A stretch of 64,000 nt of DNA from Minisyncoccia bacterium (GTDB taxonomy: Bacteria > Patescibacteriota > Minisyncoccia > Phycocordibacterales > UBA1006). Under the pieces are notes generated by a model, which searched no databases, had not been told where the DNA came from, and saw nothing but the letters and a program-made list of their open reading frames with translations. Below, piece after piece: positions 1 through 64,000 of the stretch (its first letter is position 1; each line of letters starts with the position of its first letter). The position numbers were made by a program, and so were the translations under genes. Location of the stretch: the NCBI GenBank assembly GCA_044229075.1, contig JBGATS010000004.1, positions 878 to 64,877 of the forward strand. Direction: 5' to 3'.

Positions 1-2097
1 TAGCGCAGGATGATCCTGCGGTACATTGGGTGATAGTTGCTGCAATATATGGTTTTGCACCATCAGGAGTGGTTGCTATGGTTCGATAGATAGGACCAGG
101 GGTAGTTACCGTAAATACATCTGTGGCAAGTAACGTTTCTCCGCTTCCATGGTTTTGTGGTCCTGGGTTAGTGTTTTTATAAAATTCGATATAGTAGTCA
201 CCAGGTGGCACATCGACATAGTAATCAACTAGTCCTGTAGCATCCACATTGGTGATTACTGGGTAGTTGAGTTGATCATTTGCACCAGTGTCGCTATCAC
301 CAATATCGTTGATATTAGTGCCGTATGGCGCTTCTGCATCGGGAACAAAATCACCATTAACATCGTGTAAAATATCAATATCATACCCGTTATTATAGAT
401 ACTATTATTAACGATTGCACCTGCAAAATTATTTCCAACAACAGAAAATCGAGGTAATACTATCCCAATAGGATTATCAGTAATACTATTATTATGGATA
501 ATTCCAACAATTTGCCTAAAACCCATTATTCCCGCAGCAGATGCGTATTTGAGAATATTTCCTTCTGCAGGAGTCACCCCACCAATATCCATATACTGAG
601 GATCTACTAAACTGTCACCAGCAATGAGAATATGTACTTCATTTTGTACAGGAACTCCTGTCACCGCCTCTTTGATCTGGGTTATCCCATCCATACCAAC
701 ACCAAAATAGTTTCCTTGGACTATATATGAATAGTTTGTACCGTCGGGAGGTGCCTGCACATCACCACCCAGTTCTAGTCCAAATCCAGGAGATCCTGCA
801 AGTGAGTTAGGGGTGCGCCCACCCGCAAAAACATTATGCTCGTAGGTTCCAGAACCCCCAACAAAAATATTTTGCCCAGAAAGATTTACACTGTCGTTTG
901 TTGTGGGGCCAATATGGGTTACACAATCTGGTTGAGTACCAAAACAGTTTCCCTTCAAGGTAATATCAGAAACTTGATGCTGTGGTGTGTTAATTGTATT
1001 TACCCAGACTGCACCTACTCCCGCATTAACAGGGCTCTGTATATGCCCACTAATAATATTACCTTCGCCAAGGTTGGACCCGCCAACAACTACGCGTTTA
1101 ATTGTATTGATAGGGTTGACAGCATTATCAATATTAACACCGATCTGACTCCCCAATCCGATTGTTCCTGTACGGTCAGTACCAATATAGTTTCCTTGAA
1201 TCATAATATCTTCACCTGATTCAATGTGAATATTTCTCGCAGCAACTGATGGATTCCAAGTATTAAGTGCGCCACTAATAATATTGCGTTCCTGTATAGT
1301 ATCTCCACCAATCGTAATATGGTGGGTCGCATCACTACTGGTTACGGTAATAATGTTTATATCACTCGATGTCGGGCGATCAGCGAATGTTGTTGACCCA
1401 TCTGATCGGACACCAATTAAATTACCCTGGATTGAGATTTCATAACTTTCAAGAATAGGAAGACTTATATTGCCTCCACTATTAATAATATTCCCATTCC
1501 CTATCGCACCATCACCAATCACGATATGGTTACTGTTCTGGATAGATAATCCAGAACTAATAGCACTATTCATTCCTGAAATATCGGTACCAATATGGGA
1601 ACAGGTAACTGAGATATTGTTTGAATTCATAATACTTAGACTTCTCACTGAGACTCCATAAATCCCGCCAGAAGATGCGCCTGAAAAGAAAATTTGTGAA
1701 TTACCACTGCCAAAGTTAATCTCCACTCCCAATGTCCGAGGAGATGAACCTGTAACAATTTCTCCACATGAAAGTCCTGGTATTCCAGAAACACCGTCGA
1801 TCATAATCGGCGAAGTAATAGCAGGAAGGGTGCTTATTGGATCAATGACCATAGGGCCACTGAATGTAATCGTATCTGATCCTGCTGGATCACCAGATCC
1901 ACATTCACCAGGTGATACGAATCCATGTGGATCTCCTGTTACAGTATCATTTGCTTTTTCTATTGCTTCACGGAGTGTACAGACACCGTCGTCTGCGATA
2001 ACATCAGTGTTTGAGTCTACAATAATACTGTTTGCATGGTGGTAATAACGACCATTGATACAAGGATTGATAATGGTTTGATAAGGTTTTTAGACAT
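1..2097 (-). CDS. Large secreted parallel beta-helix repeat protein with CSLREA-like N-terminal motif (CTLREAIEKAN) and Ca-binding DxDxDG-like repeats. C-terminus runs off the left window edge. The N-terminus shows an apparent frame break.
   Basis: Manual minus-strand translation in the frame with codon high-ends at 1 mod 3. It is open from 2089 down to position 1. Typical beta-helix repeats appear (IHNNSITDNPIGIVL, VGNNFAGAIVNNSIYNN). The motif PMVIDPISTLPAITSPIMIDG follows CTLREA. Absent from the ORF track because no stop lies in the window. Confidence 0.6.
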
Positions 2098-2135
2098 ATA
2101 GGTATAGTATATTGTATGGAGGGTATAAATGCAAG

Positions 2136-41145: not shown

Positions 41146-42069
41146 ATGAATATTCAGCAAGCAAAACAGCGCTTCTTGGAATATGTTGAAATAGAAAAAG
41201 GGCGAGCGCTCAATACTGTACGAAACTACGAACACTATCTGGATGTGTTTATTCGTCACACCGCTATTCATGATACCAGTGATATCACGGACGAGATTGT
41301 CCGAGAATTTCGTCTGTGGCTCAATCGTCAACCAGTACACACAAAAATTCGTGGAGAACAAAAAACAATGTCAAAAAAAACTCAGAATTATTATTTGATC
41401 GCCCTTCGTGCATTCCTAAAATATTTAGCACGACAAGAGATAAAAAGTCTTCCTGCAGATCGTATTGAACTTGCAAAAGTTCCTATGCGAGAACTCGACT
41501 TGATTACCGCTGCCGAACTCAATCGACTGATGGACGCACCCACAGGTAGTGATGAACGTGCGCTCCGTGATCGTGCGATCTTGGAATTACTCTTTTCGAC
41601 AGGATTGCGTGTATCAGAATTATGCAACCTTACCACCGACATTGATTTTACTACTGATGAATTTTCTGTTCGTGGTAAAGGTGGAAAAATTCGCGTTGTC
41701 TTTATCTCTGATTCTGCACGTACCGCAGTACAACAATATATCCAAAAGAGAAAAGATATGTCCGACGCATTGTTCGTTGCTGTGTCGGATGAAACACGAG
41801 GAAGAAAACCAGCTGACCGTGATGCCAGTCTGACCCGCAGGGCAATCCTGCGCATTGTAAAACACTATGCAATCAAGGCTGGGATTTCAAAAAAGGTGAC
41901 CCCTCACGTGATCAGACACTGCTTTGCAACGGGGTTATTATCCAATGGTGCCGATATCCGCAGTGTGCAAGTGATGTTAGGTCATGCGAACATTGCAACC
42001 ACCCAGGTTTATACTCATGTCACCGATAAACAACTTCGTGAAGTTCACAAAAAATTTCATGGGCGATAA
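41146..42069 (+). CDS. xerC: Tyrosine recombinase XerC/XerD family
   Basis: Catalytic R...HxxR...Y: LRVSEL, HVIRHCFATGLL, QVYTHV. Leaderless promoter TGCTATACT is 6 nt before the ATG. Confidence 0.85.
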   Translation: MNIQQAKQRFLEYVEIEKGRALNTVRNYEHYLDVFIRHTAIHDTSDITDEIVREFRLWLNRQPVHTKIRGEQKTMSKKTQNYYLIALRAFLKYLARQEIKSLPADRIELAKVPMRELDLITAAELNRLMDAPTGSDERALRDRAILELLFSTGLRVSELCNLTTDIDFTTDEFSVRGKGGKIRVVFISDSARTAVQQYIQKRKDMSDALFVAVSDETRGRKPADRDASLTRRAILRIVKHYAIKAGISKKVTPHVIRHCFATGLLSNGADIRSVQVMLGHANIATTQVYTHVTDKQLREVHKKFHGR

Positions 42070-48978: not shown

Positions 48979-49695
48979 ATGACAAACGCAGAAAAATCAA
49001 AGGTTTCCATGGAAGAACCGACAGCACCAGAAATATTCCACATTCATATTGATTCCCAGGATCCAGTTACAGATGATACAACCGCCTTTAATAATTGGGT
49101 AGTCAAAACATTAGGTTTCTATCATCACGATTTTATTGGTCATCCTGCTGGATATAAACATTTTGAACCATCTATTCATTCAACCTTTAAAACAAGAGAT
49201 AAGAATGAATTTGAAAAAGTTTGGAGTAAACTTGTTAATAAAGTAAAAGATTTTCCAAACATGTTTGGTTATCTGGAAGGTGAATACATTCCTACTGATA
49301 AAAGAATTGCATTTAAGCCGATTACTGAATTCTTTTTACCTAAGTTTTCGGTTTTGCGCAGAACATTAACTGAAATCGAAGAATTCAGGCAAACCGAATT
49401 TCACTTGGTATTGGATAATAAATATTCAGATCAGCGAGTTATTACTGCATTGTTAGATGCAGGTTTATATGGAGCAATACTGGATAAAAAAGACTATCAA
49501 GCAATTGTACTAACTGCACAAGGTCATCGTCGTATTATCCATCCGCTTATGAAAGAGGTAAAAGACTACTTAAACCGTGTTGGTGGTGTGGTGCGATGTA
49601 CTTTAAAAGAAGAGATTTCAATTCATGGTCACAAGGTGAATATTATCGAAGAAAAACTTCCTGAAATCGTAGATCAATTAATTCTTTTATCTTAA
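48979..49695 (+). CDS. Hypothetical protein
   Basis: 238 aa. Divergent from the TrmB-like gene. Confidence 0.4.
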   Translation: MTNAEKSKVSMEEPTAPEIFHIHIDSQDPVTDDTTAFNNWVVKTLGFYHHDFIGHPAGYKHFEPSIHSTFKTRDKNEFEKVWSKLVNKVKDFPNMFGYLEGEYIPTDKRIAFKPITEFFLPKFSVLRRTLTEIEEFRQTEFHLVLDNKYSDQRVITALLDAGLYGAILDKKDYQAIVLTAQGHRRIIHPLMKEVKDYLNRVGGVVRCTLKEEISIHGHKVNIIEEKLPEIVDQLILLS

Positions 49696-49957: not shown

Positions 49958-51667
49958 TTACTTCTTCACACCATGTTTCACGTGTAACTTCTTCACTTCT
50001 TCTTGTTCTTCTTGTTCCTTTCGTTCCTTTCCTGCTTCTCCGAGCTTTTTAAGATCTACATCTGAAAGTTTTTCAAATTCACCAACACGATTCGAAAGAT
50101 ATTCAATCGTGTTTTTTTCTGGATCTTCCAGAACTTCCTCGAGAAGTGCGTGTAACATCCATCCCATTCGTGGGCCTGGTTTCACGTGTAACTTGTTCAT
50201 CAGGTAATTTCCATCTACTTTCAATTGTGAAACACTGATTGGGTCACGCAGGCATTCCTCGATCATCGCAAAATATTTACGTAATCGATACGGTGCTTCG
50301 GTTTTATTCATTCCGACACGATCACATTCGCGGATCTGCATGAGCTGCCAGATTGGATGCTGAGTTGTTTCTCCTTCTCCTAAATTAGGAGAAGGTTGGG
50401 ATGAGGTCGTAACATTCGCAATCATCCTTCTTACAGCAGACAATGTAATTGATTCAGTATCACTGAAAAACATGTGCCATCTGACAAATTTCACAACCAG
50501 TTCCGTCTCGGCTTTTGGAAATTTCAATCGTTCCATTATTTTCTGCGCAATGCGTGCACCAACTACCTCGTGTCCATAAAATGTATAAGCTTTTTTACTA
50601 CCAGGTCGACGAGTTTTTGGTTTTCCAATATCGTGAAACAATGCTGCGAGTCGTATATGAAATGAGTATTTTTTATCAGCCGCATGTTGCAAAGCATGAA
50701 CTAGGTGATCAAACACATCATAAATATGTACACCGCCCTGAATACAACCAATACTTGGAATGATTTCAGGTAAAATAACGTCCAACAAACCTAATTGTTT
50801 CATGTGAAACAATGCAATGGCCGGGCTGTCCGAATTTATAATCTTGATAAACTCATCACGGATCCGTTCTGCAGAAATATTTTTAAGTAATTCTCGAGTT
50901 TCAATAATCGCATTCATTGTTTCATATGAAACAGTAAAACCAAGCTGCGCTGAAAATCTGATTGCCCGCATAATACGAAGCGCGTCTTCCCTGAATCGTT
51001 CAGTTGGGTCACCAACGGCAATAATCATTTGTTTTTCAATCGCCTGTTTCCCGTGAAACGGATCTATCAGCTGGAATGTTTCAAGGTCAATTGCGATTGC
51101 ATTCATCGTAAAATCACGTCGTGACAAATCGTCATAAATAGTGTCGCTAAAGGACACACTGTCAGGATGTCGGTTATCCGAATACGCCCCTTCTAATCGA
51201 TATGGAGTTATTTGAATGTCTCTGACAGAACTATCAATCAATTCATCTTCAAACACAATTGAAACAGTTCCAAACACGTTTTCATACACAACCTTAAAAT
51301 CGTTATCTTCAAACAGTTTCACAATTTGTTCAGGTTTTGCATTGGTGGTAATATCCCAGTCTTTTGGTTTATGTATACCTAGTGAAGCCTTGGTGAAATC
51401 TGGTGAAACATTATTTTTAATTCGTTTTTCTGGTAAATCTAAATCATCTCCTGATACTTCTGATGGTTTGAGTATTTGTTCGAACACTTGTTCTGGTTTC
51501 ACACTATCACCAGTTTCGAGTCGCGAAGAAATTGAAGAATTATTAGAAAAAACTATTTGGGAAATTAAGAGATCCCGCACACACCCACCAACAAGAAACG
51601 CTTCAAATCCAGCGGTTTTTAATGTTTCTGTTACACGTGAAACGTTTTTGGGAACAATAAAATTCAT
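49958..51667 (-). CDS. cca: tRNA nucleotidyltransferase (CCA-adding enzyme, HD-domain type) with a head-domain insertion of about 60 aa and a K/E-rich C-terminal tail
   Basis: GGCVRDLLI ... KPKDWDITT are separated by an insert. HD domain RLAALFHDIGKP. Six parS-like sites lie inside the CDS. Confidence 0.85.
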   Translation of the reverse strand: MNFIVPKNVSRVTETLKTAGFEAFLVGGCVRDLLISQIVFSNNSSISSRLETGDSVKPEQVFEQILKPSEVSGDDLDLPEKRIKNNVSPDFTKASLGIHKPKDWDITTNAKPEQIVKLFEDNDFKVVYENVFGTVSIVFEDELIDSSVRDIQITPYRLEGAYSDNRHPDSVSFSDTIYDDLSRRDFTMNAIAIDLETFQLIDPFHGKQAIEKQMIIAVGDPTERFREDALRIMRAIRFSAQLGFTVSYETMNAIIETRELLKNISAERIRDEFIKIINSDSPAIALFHMKQLGLLDVILPEIIPSIGCIQGGVHIYDVFDHLVHALQHAADKKYSFHIRLAALFHDIGKPKTRRPGSKKAYTFYGHEVVGARIAQKIMERLKFPKAETELVVKFVRWHMFFSDTESITLSAVRRMIANVTTSSQPSPNLGEGETTQHPIWQLMQIRECDRVGMNKTEAPYRLRKYFAMIEECLRDPISVSQLKVDGNYLMNKLHVKPGPRMGWMLHALLEEVLEDPEKNTIEYLSNRVGEFEKLSDVDLKKLGEAGKERKEQEEQEEVKKLHVKHGVKK

Positions 51668-51803
51668 AAATTACAATAACTTTAACTTTATCCAAAATAA
51701 TTTGTAACTTTTTGTTTCATGTGAAACAACTATTCATACTAATCAACCAAATAGTTAATACTTGACATATTAATATAAATATGCTAAAATTAGAATAAAA
51801 AAT

Positions 51804-51959
51804 ATGGAGAAAATAATAAATTGGCTGTGGAGAGCAGCCAGATGGGGTGGATGGTTTTCACTTCATCAATTATTAAAACTGATGTCCGCTCTTCTATTAT
51901 GGGCATCAGAACTTGCCACAACAGCATCAAAAGCTTGTGGCAGGAAAATCGGTATCTAA
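51804..51959 (+). CDS. Candidate small ORF (51 aa, Trp/Arg-rich amphipathic), convergent with pspC
   Basis: Preceded by TTGACA-N17-TGCTAAAAT at 51762-51790. MEKIINWLWRAARWGGWFSLHQLLKLMSALLLWASELATTASKACGRKIGI. Below the ORF-track size cutoff. Confidence 0.3.
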   Translation: MEKIINWLWRAARWGGWFSLHQLLKLMSALLLWASELATTASKACGRKIGI

Positions 51960-51974
51960 ATGGTTACCGATTTT

Positions 51975-52274
51975 TTATTTTTCTTTCTTTTCGTTTGATT
52001 CATCTGGAATATCTTTTTTTATGTCTTTTTCTTCTGTCTCTATTTCTTTTTCAATACTTTCTTTGTCTTTTAATTTTTCAGAGTCAAGTGATGTAGTTTT
52101 TGGTATAACAATCCAACAAATAATGTAAAACAAAATTCCTGCAAAAAGGGTTAGGATCGTAAAAAGAACGTATCCCAAGCGAATAACTGTAGTATCAATA
52201 TCAAAATATTCTGCAAAACCAGCAAGAACACCTGCAACGACTTTATCAGAATTTGAACGATATAGTTTTTTCAT
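51975..52274 (-). CDS. PspC-domain membrane protein
   Basis: MKKLYRSNSDKVVAGVLAGFAEYFDIDTTVIRLGYVLFTILT. The track ORF extends spuriously over the tRNA. Confidence 0.7.
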   Translation of the reverse strand: MKKLYRSNSDKVVAGVLAGFAEYFDIDTTVIRLGYVLFTILTLFAGILFYIICWIVIPKTTSLDSEKLKDKESIEKEIETEEKDIKKDIPDESNEKKEK

Positions 52275-52474
52275 ATGAATGATCATTATTAATTTTGAAT
52301 AAATATAATATATAGACAAAAAACTTCTCGAGGTTTGAATATTATACTCATACGAATACGAATTATTTCTACCGAAATCTAGTAAACTTCTACAAAAACA
52401 AAAGAAAGTTTTTGTTGTGGTAATAAAAATTTTCTCGAAGAATAAATTAATACTTTTTGTTCCACATATTTTTG

Positions 52475-52546
52475 TGCACCTGCCAGGACTCGAACCCAGA
52501 ATAACAGTTCCGAAGACTGCTGTGATATCCATTTCACCACAGGTGC
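52475..52546 (-). tRNA. tRNA-Arg (anticodon UCG)
   Basis: Minus-strand cloverleaf: acceptor GCACCTG/CAGGTGC, anticodon stem GCAGT/ACTGT with loop CTTCGGA, T-loop TTCGAGT. 72 nt. Confidence 0.65.
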
Positions 52547-52653
52547 AACAAAAGAAATAATAGCATAGATTTATAAAAAAATCAATTTATATAAGACATC
52601 GAGGTATTACACGTAGACAGAATTATTCAAGGACGTAAAAATTAATTACCCTA

Positions 52654-53175
52654 TTATCGGACAGAAAGATGTTCAATTCTCTCGAAAAGGTATTGATTAG
52701 TCTCTTTATCGAGATATACACCAATCCCGTCAATTTGCCAGCGTGTTTCACGGGAAACATTCCTGCTAGAAAGATATATTTCGGCTGTTTTTATGATTCG
52801 ATTCACCTTGAAATAGGATATATTTTGAAAAGGATTTTTTATTTTCCGATATTCTCTATCAAATTGCTCCCGAACATTTTCTGGTTGAGGTTTTTCTAAA
52901 CTAGTTTCACGGGAAACATTCTTATCGCGAAAAGAATATATCTCTCCGTTCATTGTTAACAGTTTTTTTGTAACAAGAGTTTCATGTGAAACAGTAATTG
53001 TCTTTACCTCGAAAAAATAATAACAATTATTTAATAATGCAATGATATCAATTTCACCAAATCTTGTAGAAAAATTTCTTTCAATAATCGAAAAACCTTG
53101 TTTCACGAGAAACATTTCCGCCTGATCTTCACCATTTTTCCCAATTTTTTGTTTTATTGAAGTAAAATTTTTCAT
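52654..53175 (-). CDS. yraN: YraN-family (UPF0102) endonuclease-like protein with a C-terminal extension. Contains 4 parS-like sites.
   Basis: GKNGEDQAEMFLVKQGFSIIERNFSTRFGEIDIIAL...YFFEVKT. Confidence 0.65.
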   Translation of the reverse strand: MKNFTSIKQKIGKNGEDQAEMFLVKQGFSIIERNFSTRFGEIDIIALLNNCYYFFEVKTITVSHETLVTKKLLTMNGEIYSFRDKNVSRETSLEKPQPENVREQFDREYRKIKNPFQNISYFKVNRIIKTAEIYLSSRNVSRETRWQIDGIGVYLDKETNQYLFERIEHLSVR

Positions 53176-53279
53176 AAATATTTGTGTTTCATATGAAACA
53201 TATATTATAAAAACTGATTATTTGATCAAAAATTATGTTTTCAATTTATTTTCACATATATAGTGTTTCACGTGAAACA

Positions 53280-53640
53280 TATATGATATACACAAGTATA
53301 TAAACTATTATAAAAAGACATTTTTTTCAGAAAAAACTATATGTAGCAAGGGTTTTTCTGATTATATTAGTATGACAGATAATTATTATCGACACAACAC
53401 TCCTCTCAAAAAGGACAATATTGACTGTCTTTTATAAACATATCCCACTGGTTTATCCACAGTTTTATTGAAAAATAAGCTTCAAAAAACACATCACGAT
53501 GAAAAAAATCATTTTTTGCAAATTATTTTAGACAACAGATTTTTTGTGTTTTCTTTTAAAAGGACACGTCCAAACCTATTGTATTGTGGATAACTCATTA
53601 ATTACAAAAAACTACTCAAATTGAGTAGTTTTTTGTAAAA
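53280..53640. promoter_or_regulatory. AT-rich intergenic region with DnaA boxes: candidate oriC
   Basis: Perfect TTATCCACA at 53453-53461. Perfect inverse TGTGGATAA at 53585-53593. TTATCGACA at 53387-53395. ATATCCCAC at 53441-53449. Flanked on the left by the parS array. Confidence 0.45.
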
Positions 53641-53641
53641 A

Positions 53642-53905
53642 TTATTTGAGGCCGATCTTCTTGAGAAGAACTTCGTATGCATCAAAATTTTTCTTTTTAA
53701 TGTATCCGAGAAGCTTTCGTCGTTCTGCAACCATTGCAATGAGTCCCCGACGAGAGTGGATGTCTTTTTTGTGGAGTTGCAAATGAGCGGTTAATTGATT
53801 GATTTGCTCACTGAGTAATGCAACCTGAACTTCTGGAGAACCGGTATTTGTTTCCGCCCCACCAAAGTCTTTCACAATTTTTGTTTTTGCTTGTTTTGTT
53901 AACAT
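53642..53905 (-). CDS. rpsO: 30S ribosomal protein S15
   Basis: MLTKQAKTKIVKDFGGAETNTGSPEVQVALLSEQINQLTAHLQLHKKDIHSRRGL. Confidence 0.9.
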   Translation of the reverse strand: MLTKQAKTKIVKDFGGAETNTGSPEVQVALLSEQINQLTAHLQLHKKDIHSRRGLIAMVAERRKLLGYIKKKNFDAYEVLLKKIGLK

Positions 53906-54036
53906 GAGGGTGTTATAGCATATTTTGAAACAAAAAGCAAGAATTTTATTCTCTGTATTTGGAAAATACCCCCACCAACATCATCTCTATATATACCTTG
54001 CAAAAGACCGATAACCAGGATATACTCGATACCATT

Positions 54037-54107
54037 GCAGGCATGGTTTAGTGGTAAAATACCTCCTTGCCAAGGAGGAGTCGGGGGTTCGATTCCCCCT
54101 GCCTGCA
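54037..54107 (+). tRNA. tRNA-Gly (anticodon GCC)
   Basis: Acceptor GCAGGCA/TGCCTGC, anticodon stem CCTCC/GGAGG with loop TTGCCAA, T-arm GGGGG-TTCGATT-CCCCC. Promoter TTGCAA-N17-TATACT upstream. Confidence 0.8.
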
Positions 54108-54302
54108 CAAACACAAATTTATATACATTTTAAAAACTTAATTTTTAGATTTCCAGGAAAAATCAATTGAAAATTTTATGGATTTTTAGCATATATTACC
54201 TATATACTATTTGTCGTTGTAAGAACTTTATTGTAGTTAAGGTGAGAATTTAAGACGAAATTATTGACAAAATTATAGAAGTATGCTAATATTAAAATAA
54301 AA

Positions 54303-62152: not shown

Positions 62153-64000
62153 ATGTCTACAAAATTTTTTCAAAAAATTATAAGTGTTTGTTTATTAGCA
62201 ACCTTTCTTCTCCCGAATATTATTTTTGCAGCACCAGTTTCTGATGTTGCAAATACAGCTCAGTCAACTATTAGTGCTGTTTCCGAAACTCTAGGAGTTA
62301 TTAAAGAGTATGGATTAGACACGTTGGCGGTTACGCTTGCTCAAACCATCTCTTCAAAACTTGCGAATAAAATTTTTAATAAAGCAAACGGTGGTGCCAG
62401 TGGGGATAGTTCAGAAAAAAGTTTTATTACTAATTTTTCTGACTATTTTAGTAATCTAAGTAACCAACAAGTTGATAAATTTGTCACTGAATTAGGAATT
62501 TCCAATAATCCATACGCACCTGATATTGTGAAAGGACTTATCACTAGTACCCAAAATCTTGCCCGAGACCAAAGCCCTCTGGAGGCGTTCAATCTCGATC
62601 GAGTCGTTGGGGCAGATTGGAAAGAATTTGCCACAGACGCAAGTGTGGGTGGATGGGACGGTATTCTTGCACTCTCCAACCCTGCGAACACCAATATCGG
62701 AGCAAACATTCTCGCCCAAGAAGAAATAGCGCGAAAAATAGAACAAGCAAAAGAGCTCGAACAAATAAAGCTCACCAGTCCTGGAACACGACCTCAAGGA
62801 AAATGTTCCCTTGACTTTAAACAATATAAAGAAGATATAAACAAAATCAAACAAAACAGAAGTAATCTCGGACCTGATGGGAAACCTATTACAAATGATA
62901 GGGCTACTCCAAGCAACCCAAGAGCAATACCAAGTACTACAAATCTTGGGCCTGATGGGAAACCTGTTGCAGACGACCAAAATACGTTAACTCCATTACA
63001 AGAAAATGTAGCAACAAGTCTTTCTCTTGCAGAAGATTATGGTGGTTGTCTCCAAGAGATGATTAACAACCCTGTTGGTTTAGTAACGAGTGGTATTGAT
63101 AGTGCGCTTGATCAGGCAAGCGACCGTCTCACCCAAGGTGATGAATTAGGCGAACTCATTGGTGGAGTACTCACTACCATGTTATCAACCTTTATTAAAT
63201 CAGGACTCACTGCACTGCAAGCAGATTTCCAATCGAATCGTGGTGTTGGTGGTCCAGAACAGCTGGTAGCCACAAACGGACAAACCATTCCCTGGACACA
63301 GGCACCACAAACAATTATTGACCTGAAGGAGGAATTTCCAGGTGCATTATCTGATACAGAAAAAGAAGTCGAAAATTTAAGAGAGTACATTACCAAAATT
63401 ACGGAAACCACCGAATCCGGGAAAACCTACGCGTCAATGATCACACAGCTGGATCAATGTATTCCTGGTCCAGATCATGGGTATAAGAAACGATTATCAG
63501 CGTATGTCAGCAAACAAACCAAAAGACTTGAAAAAAGAAAAGACAAGGGGAAAAATGCAAAAACAGTAGCAAAAAATAATGCACTCGAAAATATTGACGC
63601 AAGTTTGGACGCTGCAAAACTCTATACCGACCTATTCATGAACAATGATGTTTATAATATTCCTGGGGCAGGAATTATGATCAGCCAAGTAAAAACCATT
63701 GATATCCTGGCAGATCGGTATCAAAACGCAAAATCAGAACTCACCAATAAACAAATCACCCTTAATTTATTATATTCATTGGAGAGCGCACTCCAGACAA
63801 ACCTGAAAAGTATTAAACAATTTATCCCAGGATTACCAGAAAAATTAGTGTTTACTAATACTACCTGGAACAACCTATCAGCTACAGAAAAAAATACACT
63901 GGTAATATGGTCAAAAACAATAGCAAATGTTCCAAAGGAGGCACCATTAACCATTGAAAATTGGAACGCGTTATCGGCAGCACAAAAAAACACAATGATT
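62153..64000 (+). CDS. Large secreted hypothetical protein, 3' partial (runs off the right window edge)
   Basis: Signal peptide MSTKFFQKIISVCLLATFLLPNIIFAAP. Coding-like + frame through 64000. Short repeats NLGPDGKP. Not in the track because it has no in-window stop. Confidence 0.55.
   Translation, partial: MSTKFFQKIISVCLLATFLLPNIIFAAPVSDVANTAQSTISAVSETLGVIKEYGLDTLAVTLAQTISSKLANKIFNKANGGASGDSSEKSFITNFSDYFSNLSNQQVDKFVTELGISNNPYAPDIVKGLITSTQNLARDQSPLEAFNLDRVVGADWKEFATDASVGGWDGILALSNPANTNIGANILAQEEIARKIEQAKELEQIKLTSPGTRPQGKCSLDFKQYKEDINKIKQNRSNLGPDGKPITNDRATPSNPRAIPSTTNLGPDGKPVADDQNTLTPLQENVATSLSLAEDYGGCLQEMINNPVGLVTSGIDSALDQASDRLTQGDELGELIGGVLTTMLSTFIKSGLTALQADFQSNRGVGGPEQLVATNGQTIPWTQAPQTIIDLKEEFPGALSDTEKEVENLREYITKITETTESGKTYASMITQLDQCIPGPDHGYKKRLSAYVSKQTKRLEKRKDKGKNAKTVAKNNALENIDASLDAAKLYTDLFMNNDVYNIPGAGIMISQVKTIDILADRYQNAKSELTNKQITLNLLYSLESALQTNLKSIKQFIPGLPEKLVFTNTTWNNLSATEKNTLVIWSKTIANVPKEAPLTIENWNALSAAQKNTMI

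Follow-up and report, generated by a model that had tools for sequence, protein, structure and literature searches.

The yraN–rpsO intergenic region

The DNA analysed here, referred to below as the window, is a 64-kb stretch with a GC content of about 37%, which comes from a small, AT-rich genome belonging to the CPR (Candidate Phyla Radiation)/Patescibacteria group, class Paceibacteria. Its nearest relatives in GTDB, found via the CCA-adding enzyme, are metagenome-assembled genomes labelled Candidatus Paceibacterota or Nomurabacteria. The subject of this study is the non-coding gap between yraN and rpsO (53176-53641), which holds a group of DnaA boxes and into which an array of parS sites extends from the left (Table 1). 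We consider that this gap is probably (at a probability of roughly 0.68) the chromosomal replication origin (oriC) of the bacterium, fused to a parS centromere and located away from dnaA. An oriC away from dnaA and beside parS had been proposed in a preliminary description of the window, and the proposal is supported here mainly by comparison, through the conservation of the element over 85 loci, a switch in strand skew, genes that diverge from the element and the lack of a nearby dnaA.

The gap has the lowest GC content among the gaps of the window longer than 250 bp, yet it is the third in length, so that its earlier characterization as the longest AT-rich non-coding stretch stands for composition and not for length. 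The only two perfect DnaA boxes of the window both lie in it, 132 bp apart and facing each other (53453 on the plus strand and 53585 on the minus strand), and they are accompanied by variant boxes, all as previously described. Two perfect boxes, one box with one mismatch and two weaker ones thus fall within 208 bp, and no comparable cluster is found elsewhere in the window. The boxes are numbered here from left to right: box 2 has the same orientation as box 1 and starts 8 nt further on, the perfect box 3 starts 13 nt after the start of box 2, and box 4 is the second perfect box, for which counterparts with one or two mismatches were found in the nearest relatives only (loci L005 and L002).

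Table 1 Features at and around the yraN–rpsO gap, in window coordinates
Feature	Position	Strand	Remarks
CCA-adding enzyme gene	49958-51667	-	
parS sites (0-3 mismatches)	49974, 50178, 50796, 50918, 51045, 51629, 51713, 52744, 52903, 52978, 53099, 53185, 53264		
PspC-domain protein gene	~51975-52271	-	
tRNA-Arg	52474-52546	-	
yraN	52654-53175	-	UPF0102 family nuclease-like protein, 173 aa; Pfam PF02021, E 1.5e-16
Intergenic gap yraN-rpsO	53176-53641		466 bp; GC 0.242 vs ~0.37 for the window
Promoter-like site, TTGAAA-16 nt-AATAAT, toward yraN	53217-53244	-	Consensus match only; between both intergenic parS sites
AARGAC-motif copies, further	53312-53320, 53558-53566		
One-mismatch DnaA box TTATCGACA	53386-53394	+	Window genome only; unconserved in relatives
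AARGAC-motif inverted pair AAAAGGACA and TGTCTTTT	53409-53417 and 53426-53433		The latter abuts box 1
Box 1 TTATAAACA	53432-53440	+	Clade consensus TTATACACA
Box 2 ATATCCCAC	53440-53448	+	Consensus TATCCAC; co-oriented with box 1
Box 3, perfect DnaA box TTATCCACA	53453-53461	+	Most conserved element; followed by GTTTTR
AT-rich spacer between boxes 3 and 4	53462-53584		123 bp; putative site of DnaA oligomer extension and unwinding
Box 4, perfect DnaA box TGTGGATAA	53585-53593	-	Faces box 3
Perfect hairpin, 18-bp stem, T and A runs on flanks	53602-53638		rpsO terminator; right border of the non-coding region
rpsO, ribosomal protein S15	53642-53905	-	Pfam PF00312; right-hand neighbour in the window genome only
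tRNA-Gly	54037-54108	+	Followed by four plus-strand genes, as far as comM

The parS cluster which had been noted directly to the left of the candidate is well marked. Thirteen parS-like sites (TGTTTCACGTGAAACA, with up to 3 mismatches) are present in the window where 0.67 are expected; all of them lie within 3.3 kb (49974-53279), with none elsewhere, and the two rightmost, of which the one at 53264 is perfect, are inside the gap. Ten of the 13 are in coding sequence, six in the gene of the CCA-adding enzyme and four in yraN, and two reading frames are used for the coding sites (49974-53114), giving the recurrent peptides (N/T)VS(R/H/Y)ET or xFHxKx. Their positions within the CCA gene are kept in the orthologues of L002-L006 and L011. 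More distant relatives carry between 0 and 5 sites per locus, therefore the array has expanded in the subclade of the window. A motif scan found no ParB signature in the window or in loci L001-L034, and parA/parB are not adjacent to the array.

Both proteins whose genes carry parS sites have unusual segments. The Pfam UPF0102 match of YraN spans residues 15-60 only (profile positions 1-42 of 80), and the protein seems to hold an insertion of about 80 residues which contains three of the parS sites. About 100 N-terminal residues of the CCA-adding enzyme can be aligned in the closest relatives only, most orthologues matching from residue 100; within this segment are found a stretch of low complexity and, at codons 8-13, a parS site.

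Conservation of a three-box element

The CCA-adding enzyme was used for obtaining 33 related loci. At 21 of these, GTDB loci of species-level relatives, the same order is found, namely yraN on the minus strand, then parS, then, 130-190 bp further, a plus-strand box similar to TTATCCACA (at most one mismatch), which is perfect in 16 of them. Aligning the loci reveals three co-oriented DnaA-box-like elements with the consensus TGTCYTTTATAMACA-TATCCAC-N4-TTATCCACA-GTTTTG (core alignment TGTCnTTTATAAACAnTATCCACAnAGTTATCCACAGTTTTG). This core is in register in all 22 loci of the window clade (22/22), it also aligns in one Falkowbacteria locus, and window positions 53426-53467 fit it exactly.

A metagenome collection was then scanned for the pattern TTTATNNACA-N11-12-TTATCCACAGTT, which yielded at least 120 loci. 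Among the 120 matches listed, 64 directly follow a minus-strand yraN on their left; in these, a parS site about 130 bp before box 3 and a plus-strand CCA-adding enzyme gene on the right-hand side are typical. A further 3 have the CCA-adding enzyme gene only. A dnaA-like match is present in the locus for 6 of those listed (one of them weak), and the other 47 contain no probe gene, many resembling ordinary multi-box origins of other phyla. The positive controls for the pattern are four loci of other phyla situated just past the 3' end of dnaA, and the CPR locus L110, about 2 kb from dnaA. Since the pattern recovers canonical origins elsewhere, it is an origin-type signature, which in this clade goes with yraN instead of dnaA.

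In total, at least 85 distinct loci carry the element. The information content peaks on box 3, the columns of which are nearly invariant, and the identity of the CCA-adding enzyme across the relatives goes down to about 50%. The gene to the right of the element varies (tRNA-Gly, tRNA-Arg, the CCA-adding enzyme gene or rpsO).

The arrangement in the window differs from that of its nearest relatives, L002 (7652-9200) and L005 (7971-9400), in that yraN and the element are inverted as a unit (52654-54108 in the window). The rpsO gene lies between the element and tRNA-Gly in the window, and on the other side of yraN in L002 and L005. The putative origin is at the centre of this small rearrangement.

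Strand asymmetry and gene orientation

Strand composition was compared on either side of the element using GC skew at third codon positions (GC3 skew). When the relatives are pooled (69 loci), the plus-strand GC3 skew to the left of the element is -0.122 for plus-strand genes and -0.126 for minus-strand genes, and to the right it is +0.042 and +0.035, respectively. Genes of both strands having like values, the switch is independent of gene orientation. Subtracting the left value from the right one gives a positive difference for 34 of 36 loci, with a mean of +0.19. With 4 kb taken on each side, the mean step at the element is +0.233 (positive in 17/18, p = 1.5e-5), compared to -0.05 and -0.08 at control points placed 4 kb away on each side. 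In 17 of 27 loci the minimum of the cumulative GC skew is no further than 1 kb from box 3, and the step is present in all five of the nearest relatives (L002, L005, L007, L009 and L010). A switch from minus to plus in this direction is that of an origin, not of a terminus. GC skew had been suggested as a check in the preliminary description: the switch is located at the element in the relatives, while the raw skew of the window itself is flat and negative on both sides.

Gene orientation diverges at the same place. In the relatives, the minus strand carries 59% of the coding bases to the left of the element and the plus strand 63% of those to the right; the corresponding shares in the window are 65% and 84%, and two further genes past its right end lie on the plus strand too. 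The minus-strand genes noted earlier to the left include one plus-strand gene among them (48979-49695), and rpsO, the first gene to the right, is on the minus strand.

Location of dnaA and origins of sister lineages

A B. subtilis DnaA sequence, confirmed by Pfam (270 bits), was used as a tblastn query. It gave no match in the window, in the clade loci L002-L034 or in the yraN-linked metagenome loci (±10 kb), and no DnaA signature motifs were found in the window or in L001-L034. Contig L188 carries the right flank for 4.7 kb past the window end (to about 68.7 kb), a stretch that holds two genes on the plus strand but no dnaA. In this genome dnaA must therefore be over 53 kb away from the element on the left side, or over 15 kb away on the right, and the observation that no dnaA is nearby holds for the window, for the 4.7 kb beyond it and for the flanks of the relatives.

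Other CPR lineages provide a point of comparison. In origins of the B. subtilis type, the basal unwinding system (BUS) consists of two co-oriented boxes, a short GC-rich spacer, at least three DnaA-trios and AT-rich DNA (PMC8287927, PMC10721633). We searched for it with the criterion of at least three trios (3'-NAN-5') within 16 bp of a box. The complete Falkowbacteria genome CP065010.1 (L179, 5872-11605) has yraN, a tRNA gene, a homologous box triple and yidC-yidD-rnpA-rpmH, after which come dnaA and dnaN. The triple, TTATGCACA-aaatccactac-TTATCCACA, is 2.4 kb upstream of dnaA and about 1.4 kb from yraN, and the dnaA-dnaN spacer contains a textbook unwinding module, TTATCCCCACTATCCACA-CCCC-TTATTAGTATTACTGTTATT. 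The same module is found in the dnaA-dnaN spacer of Jorgensenbacteria-like Paceibacterota (L183, L185 and L186, 11383-11570). The origins of both lineages combine a pair of adjacent boxes with a GC cluster and 7-8 trios (the latter number also in L179 and L180 as positive controls of the BUS scan), with no parS within ±10 kb, and the same GC3 analysis, serving as a positive control, places their skew switch at dnaA. Since these sister lineages are canonical, the ancestral CPR origin looks canonical as well, and the clade of the window looks to have departed from it.

These canonical CPR origins come from the phylum-level group to which the window belongs. L179 and L110 carry a box triple homologous to that of the window, TTATNCACA-AATCCAC-N-TTATCCACA, with inverted repeats specific to their lineage and a tRNA gene on its flanks. 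The element of the window differs from the canonical CPR origins in that their triple is about 2.4 kb from dnaA, their skew switch is at dnaA and no parS is present within ±10 kb. As in the BUS, boxes 1 and 2 point the same way; the 8 nt between their starts reproduce the geometry of the dnaA-dnaN box pair in L186 (TTATCCCCATATCCACA) and L179, and AT-rich DNA follows box 3. Unlike in the BUS, a third, perfect box takes the place of the GC cluster and trios, there is no trio of the preferred CTA type, and the element is not between dnaA and dnaN.

A second conserved motif and a possible mechanism

A second motif, AARGAC(A)/(T)GTCYTT, surrounds the boxes. Over 70 loci it occurs 3.5 times per ±150 bp, compared to a background of 0.5 per 300 bp (about 7-fold). 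One copy abuts box 1 in 66 of the 70, and other copies are at preferred positions, often as inverted pairs. We know of no factor for this motif; its pattern suggests that an additional DNA-binding factor may be involved. Other CPR-like origins have different inverted repeats, of the TAGACTWAA type, in the same places.

Based on these features, the following sequence of events can be envisaged. DnaA would bind strongly to box 3 and, cooperatively, to the weaker boxes 1 and 2 (53432-53448), and in the window genome box 4 (53585) would be bound as well. The resulting oligomer would grow the way the boxes point, in the window genome into the AT-rich spacer closed off by box 4, and this AT-rich DNA would open for helicase loading; this direction is proposed because of the analogy with the BUS (PMC8287927, PMC10721633) and of the box orientation in the control loci. 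ParB would load on the parS array next to it (13 sites in 3.3 kb), tying segregation and the organization of the chromosome arms to the origin, and a further factor probably binds the AARGACA/TGTCYTT inverted repeats which bracket the boxes. We infer that the window genome would behave like its relatives in this respect.

Evidence against an origin and alternative explanations

Several observations weigh against the gap being an origin, and the first group concerns the window itself. Its raw GC skew is -0.047 and -0.031 over the 10 kb to either side of the gap. GC3 skew changes from -0.085 (47 genes to the left) to -0.006 (8 genes to the right), with a z of 2.07, and when the choice of the split point is allowed for, the changepoint permutation p is 0.25. 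The GC3 step (+0.07 to +0.11) has the direction of an origin but cannot be told from noise: it is about one standard deviation (SD) of the steps along the window, larger ones occurring elsewhere, and the two genes past the right end have GC3 skews of -0.07 and +0.08. Among the relatives, L025, L026, L031 and L100 have the yraN-parS-box element without a step; either the skew is weak in these genomes or their origin is elsewhere.

The second group concerns unwinding. The A/T-tract unwinding element put forward in the preliminary description found no confirmation, in that neither duplex stability nor positional AT content points to a unique or fixed element. The duplex stability of the spacer between boxes 3 and 4 is only 0.3-1.3 SD below the window mean, the gap is not the least stable DNA of the window, and its own least stable part is near parS, away from the direction of the boxes. 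Positional AT content over the 85 loci shows no AT-rich block at a fixed position. The BUS scan finds 3 trios (GTT TTA TTG) directly after box 3 in the window (spacer 0), by a criterion that is very permissive in AT-rich DNA; only two (GTTTTG) are conserved in the relatives, which have no conserved trio run. There is no GC-rich spacer after box 3, as GTTTT follows directly where the controls have CCCC or CCCT. The scan gives many false positives in the window, such as a BUS-like match at 493-501, inside the coding open reading frame (ORF) at the left end. Finally, the dnaA-dnaN locus of the window clade was not located: Falkowbacteria DnaA, Jorgensenbacteria DnaA and cluster representatives, used as queries, returned other lineages only. 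Given the dnaA-dnaN origins of the sister lineages and the second box cluster of L179, the element could represent that half of an ancestral two-part origin at which no unwinding takes place.

These points raise the question of whether the element is a DnaA-box cluster with parS near an origin and not the start site, either as the relic of an upstream half or as a site titrating or reactivating DnaA, with unwinding taking place at dnaA-dnaN elsewhere. The Falkowbacteria genome, with its triple upstream of dnaA and its unwinding element in the dnaA-dnaN spacer, and the Jorgensenbacteria-like Paceibacterota, with both unwinding element and skew switch at dnaA, are in favour of this, as are the lack of a conserved trio run or GC cluster at the yraN element, the window skew without sign reversal and the four relatives without a step. 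In E. coli, datA and DARS1/2 are box clusters which regulate DnaA and are not origins, with no strand-composition switch or parS. The element resembles them as a small conserved DnaA-box cluster away from dnaA, and differs from them in that the polarity switch maps to it in the relatives. The explanation as a whole also meets with difficulties: a start at a dnaA more than 10 kb away predicts a monotonic skew across the locus, and instead the step found in 34/36 loci is at the element and absent 4 kb to either side, the cumulative minima cluster no further than 1 kb from box 3, and gene orientation diverges there. A two-part origin with halves tens of kb apart is, to our knowledge, without precedent. 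We regard this explanation, the strongest of the alternatives, as unlikely.

The boxes could also be transcriptional operators through which DnaA regulates yraN or the adjoining tRNA and rpsO genes, the parS array being independent of them. The element always travels with yraN, even through the local inversion relative to L002 and L005, and promoter-like sites are present in the gap. DnaA also acts as a transcription factor, with a preference for closely spaced site pairs (PMC11317965). However, between the boxes and the start of yraN lie parS and about 100 bp, the boxes point away from yraN, and the right-hand neighbour differs among the relatives. The operator explanation also leaves the orientation-independent skew switch and the gene divergence unexplained, which makes it quite improbable.

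That the boxes are functionless and co-occur by chance in an AT-rich gap is effectively refuted, since the core is conserved base for base over the 85 distinct loci despite a CCA-adding enzyme identity that goes down to about 50%, even if the count of perfect boxes is compatible with it (2 compared to 0.90 expected, reached by 22 of 100 shuffles and not significant) and one-mismatch boxes are not enriched in the window (23 compared to 24.1 expected). We estimate the chance of both perfect boxes falling 132 bp apart within one gap at about 0.002. The boxes are thus beyond chance because both share one gap and, above all, because the element is conserved; the count alone would be insufficient.

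Relation to known systems and implications

Chromosomal origins away from dnaA are known from E. coli, where oriC is between mnmG (gidA) and mioC, and from Caulobacter, where Cori is next to hemE. Like these, the gap discussed here combines a DnaA-box cluster, AT-rich intergenic DNA, a strand-composition switch and divergent genes, without linkage to dnaA. It differs from them in having fewer boxes (one perfect and two weak conserved ones, and one extra perfect one in the window genome), no 13-mer repeats, GATC clusters or CtrA sites, yraN and tRNA genes as neighbours, and parS in the gap itself. Origin-proximal parS/ParB clusters are found in Caulobacter, Myxococcus, Corynebacterium and Streptomyces. 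The array of the window is similar to those in that multiple canonical 16-bp palindromes lie at the origin, several of them within genes, and differs in being very dense (13 in 3.3 kb), with ten sites within two unrelated coding sequences.

Both origins away from dnaA and parS clusters near origins are thus well known. The literature searched contained no description of a CPR/Paceibacteria oriC or of a link between yraN and oriC. What appears to be new is that a minimal core of three boxes is linked to yraN and parS, and uncoupled from dnaA-dnaN while sister CPR lineages are canonical; the lack of a recognizable trio module, the second conserved motif and a parS array located largely within coding sequence appear to be new as well. 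In its widest form, the proposal would be that a large Paceibacteria subclade has uncoupled its origin from dnaA, starting from a minimal three-box element without the otherwise near-universal box-pair/trio module and with the help of an extra factor binding the AARGACA/TGTCYTT inverted repeats, and that a centromere lying partly in the coding sequence of neighbouring genes is fused to this origin. We put this forward tentatively, as a possibility that is still rather doubtful.

CPR bacteria represent a very large and mostly uncultivated share of bacterial diversity. The signature of the putative origin (yraN, then parS, then, after about 130-190 bp, TTATACACA-TATCCAC-N4-TTATCCACAGTTTTG) would provide an anchor for growth-rate estimates based on read depth and help with assembly checks, and the element would supply a candidate replicator for genetic tools. 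The contrast with the dnaA-dnaN origins of the sister lineages would constitute a natural experiment on the relocation of origins and on the dispensability of the box-plus-trio module, while the second motif points to a possible lineage-specific origin factor.

Other features of the window

The right border of the gap is the terminator hairpin of rpsO and not origin sequence. A non-coding RNA in the gap was rejected, since Rfam matches are sub-threshold only: the SpF25 match (30 bits, with a cut-off of 48) overlaps the terminator hairpin. ORFs within the gap are of 20-45 aa only, and none is notable. For the ribosomal S15 leader, Rfam gives a weak match 5' of rpsO (53852-53973, minus strand; 24.2 bits with a cut-off of 39.5, E 0.016).

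The possibility that the window belongs to a plasmid or secondary replicon was rejected, as it contains ribosomal protein and tRNA synthetase genes, along with other core genes. Both of its ends are inside long ORFs which run off the window (1-2100 on the minus strand and 62153-64000 on the plus strand). The left one is repeat-rich and probably encodes a surface protein, and the right one encodes a 940-aa protein, followed on contig L188 by a 1193-aa protein. A gene for a XerC/D-type tyrosine recombinase (41146-42069, plus strand) is located about 12 kb to the left of the putative origin.

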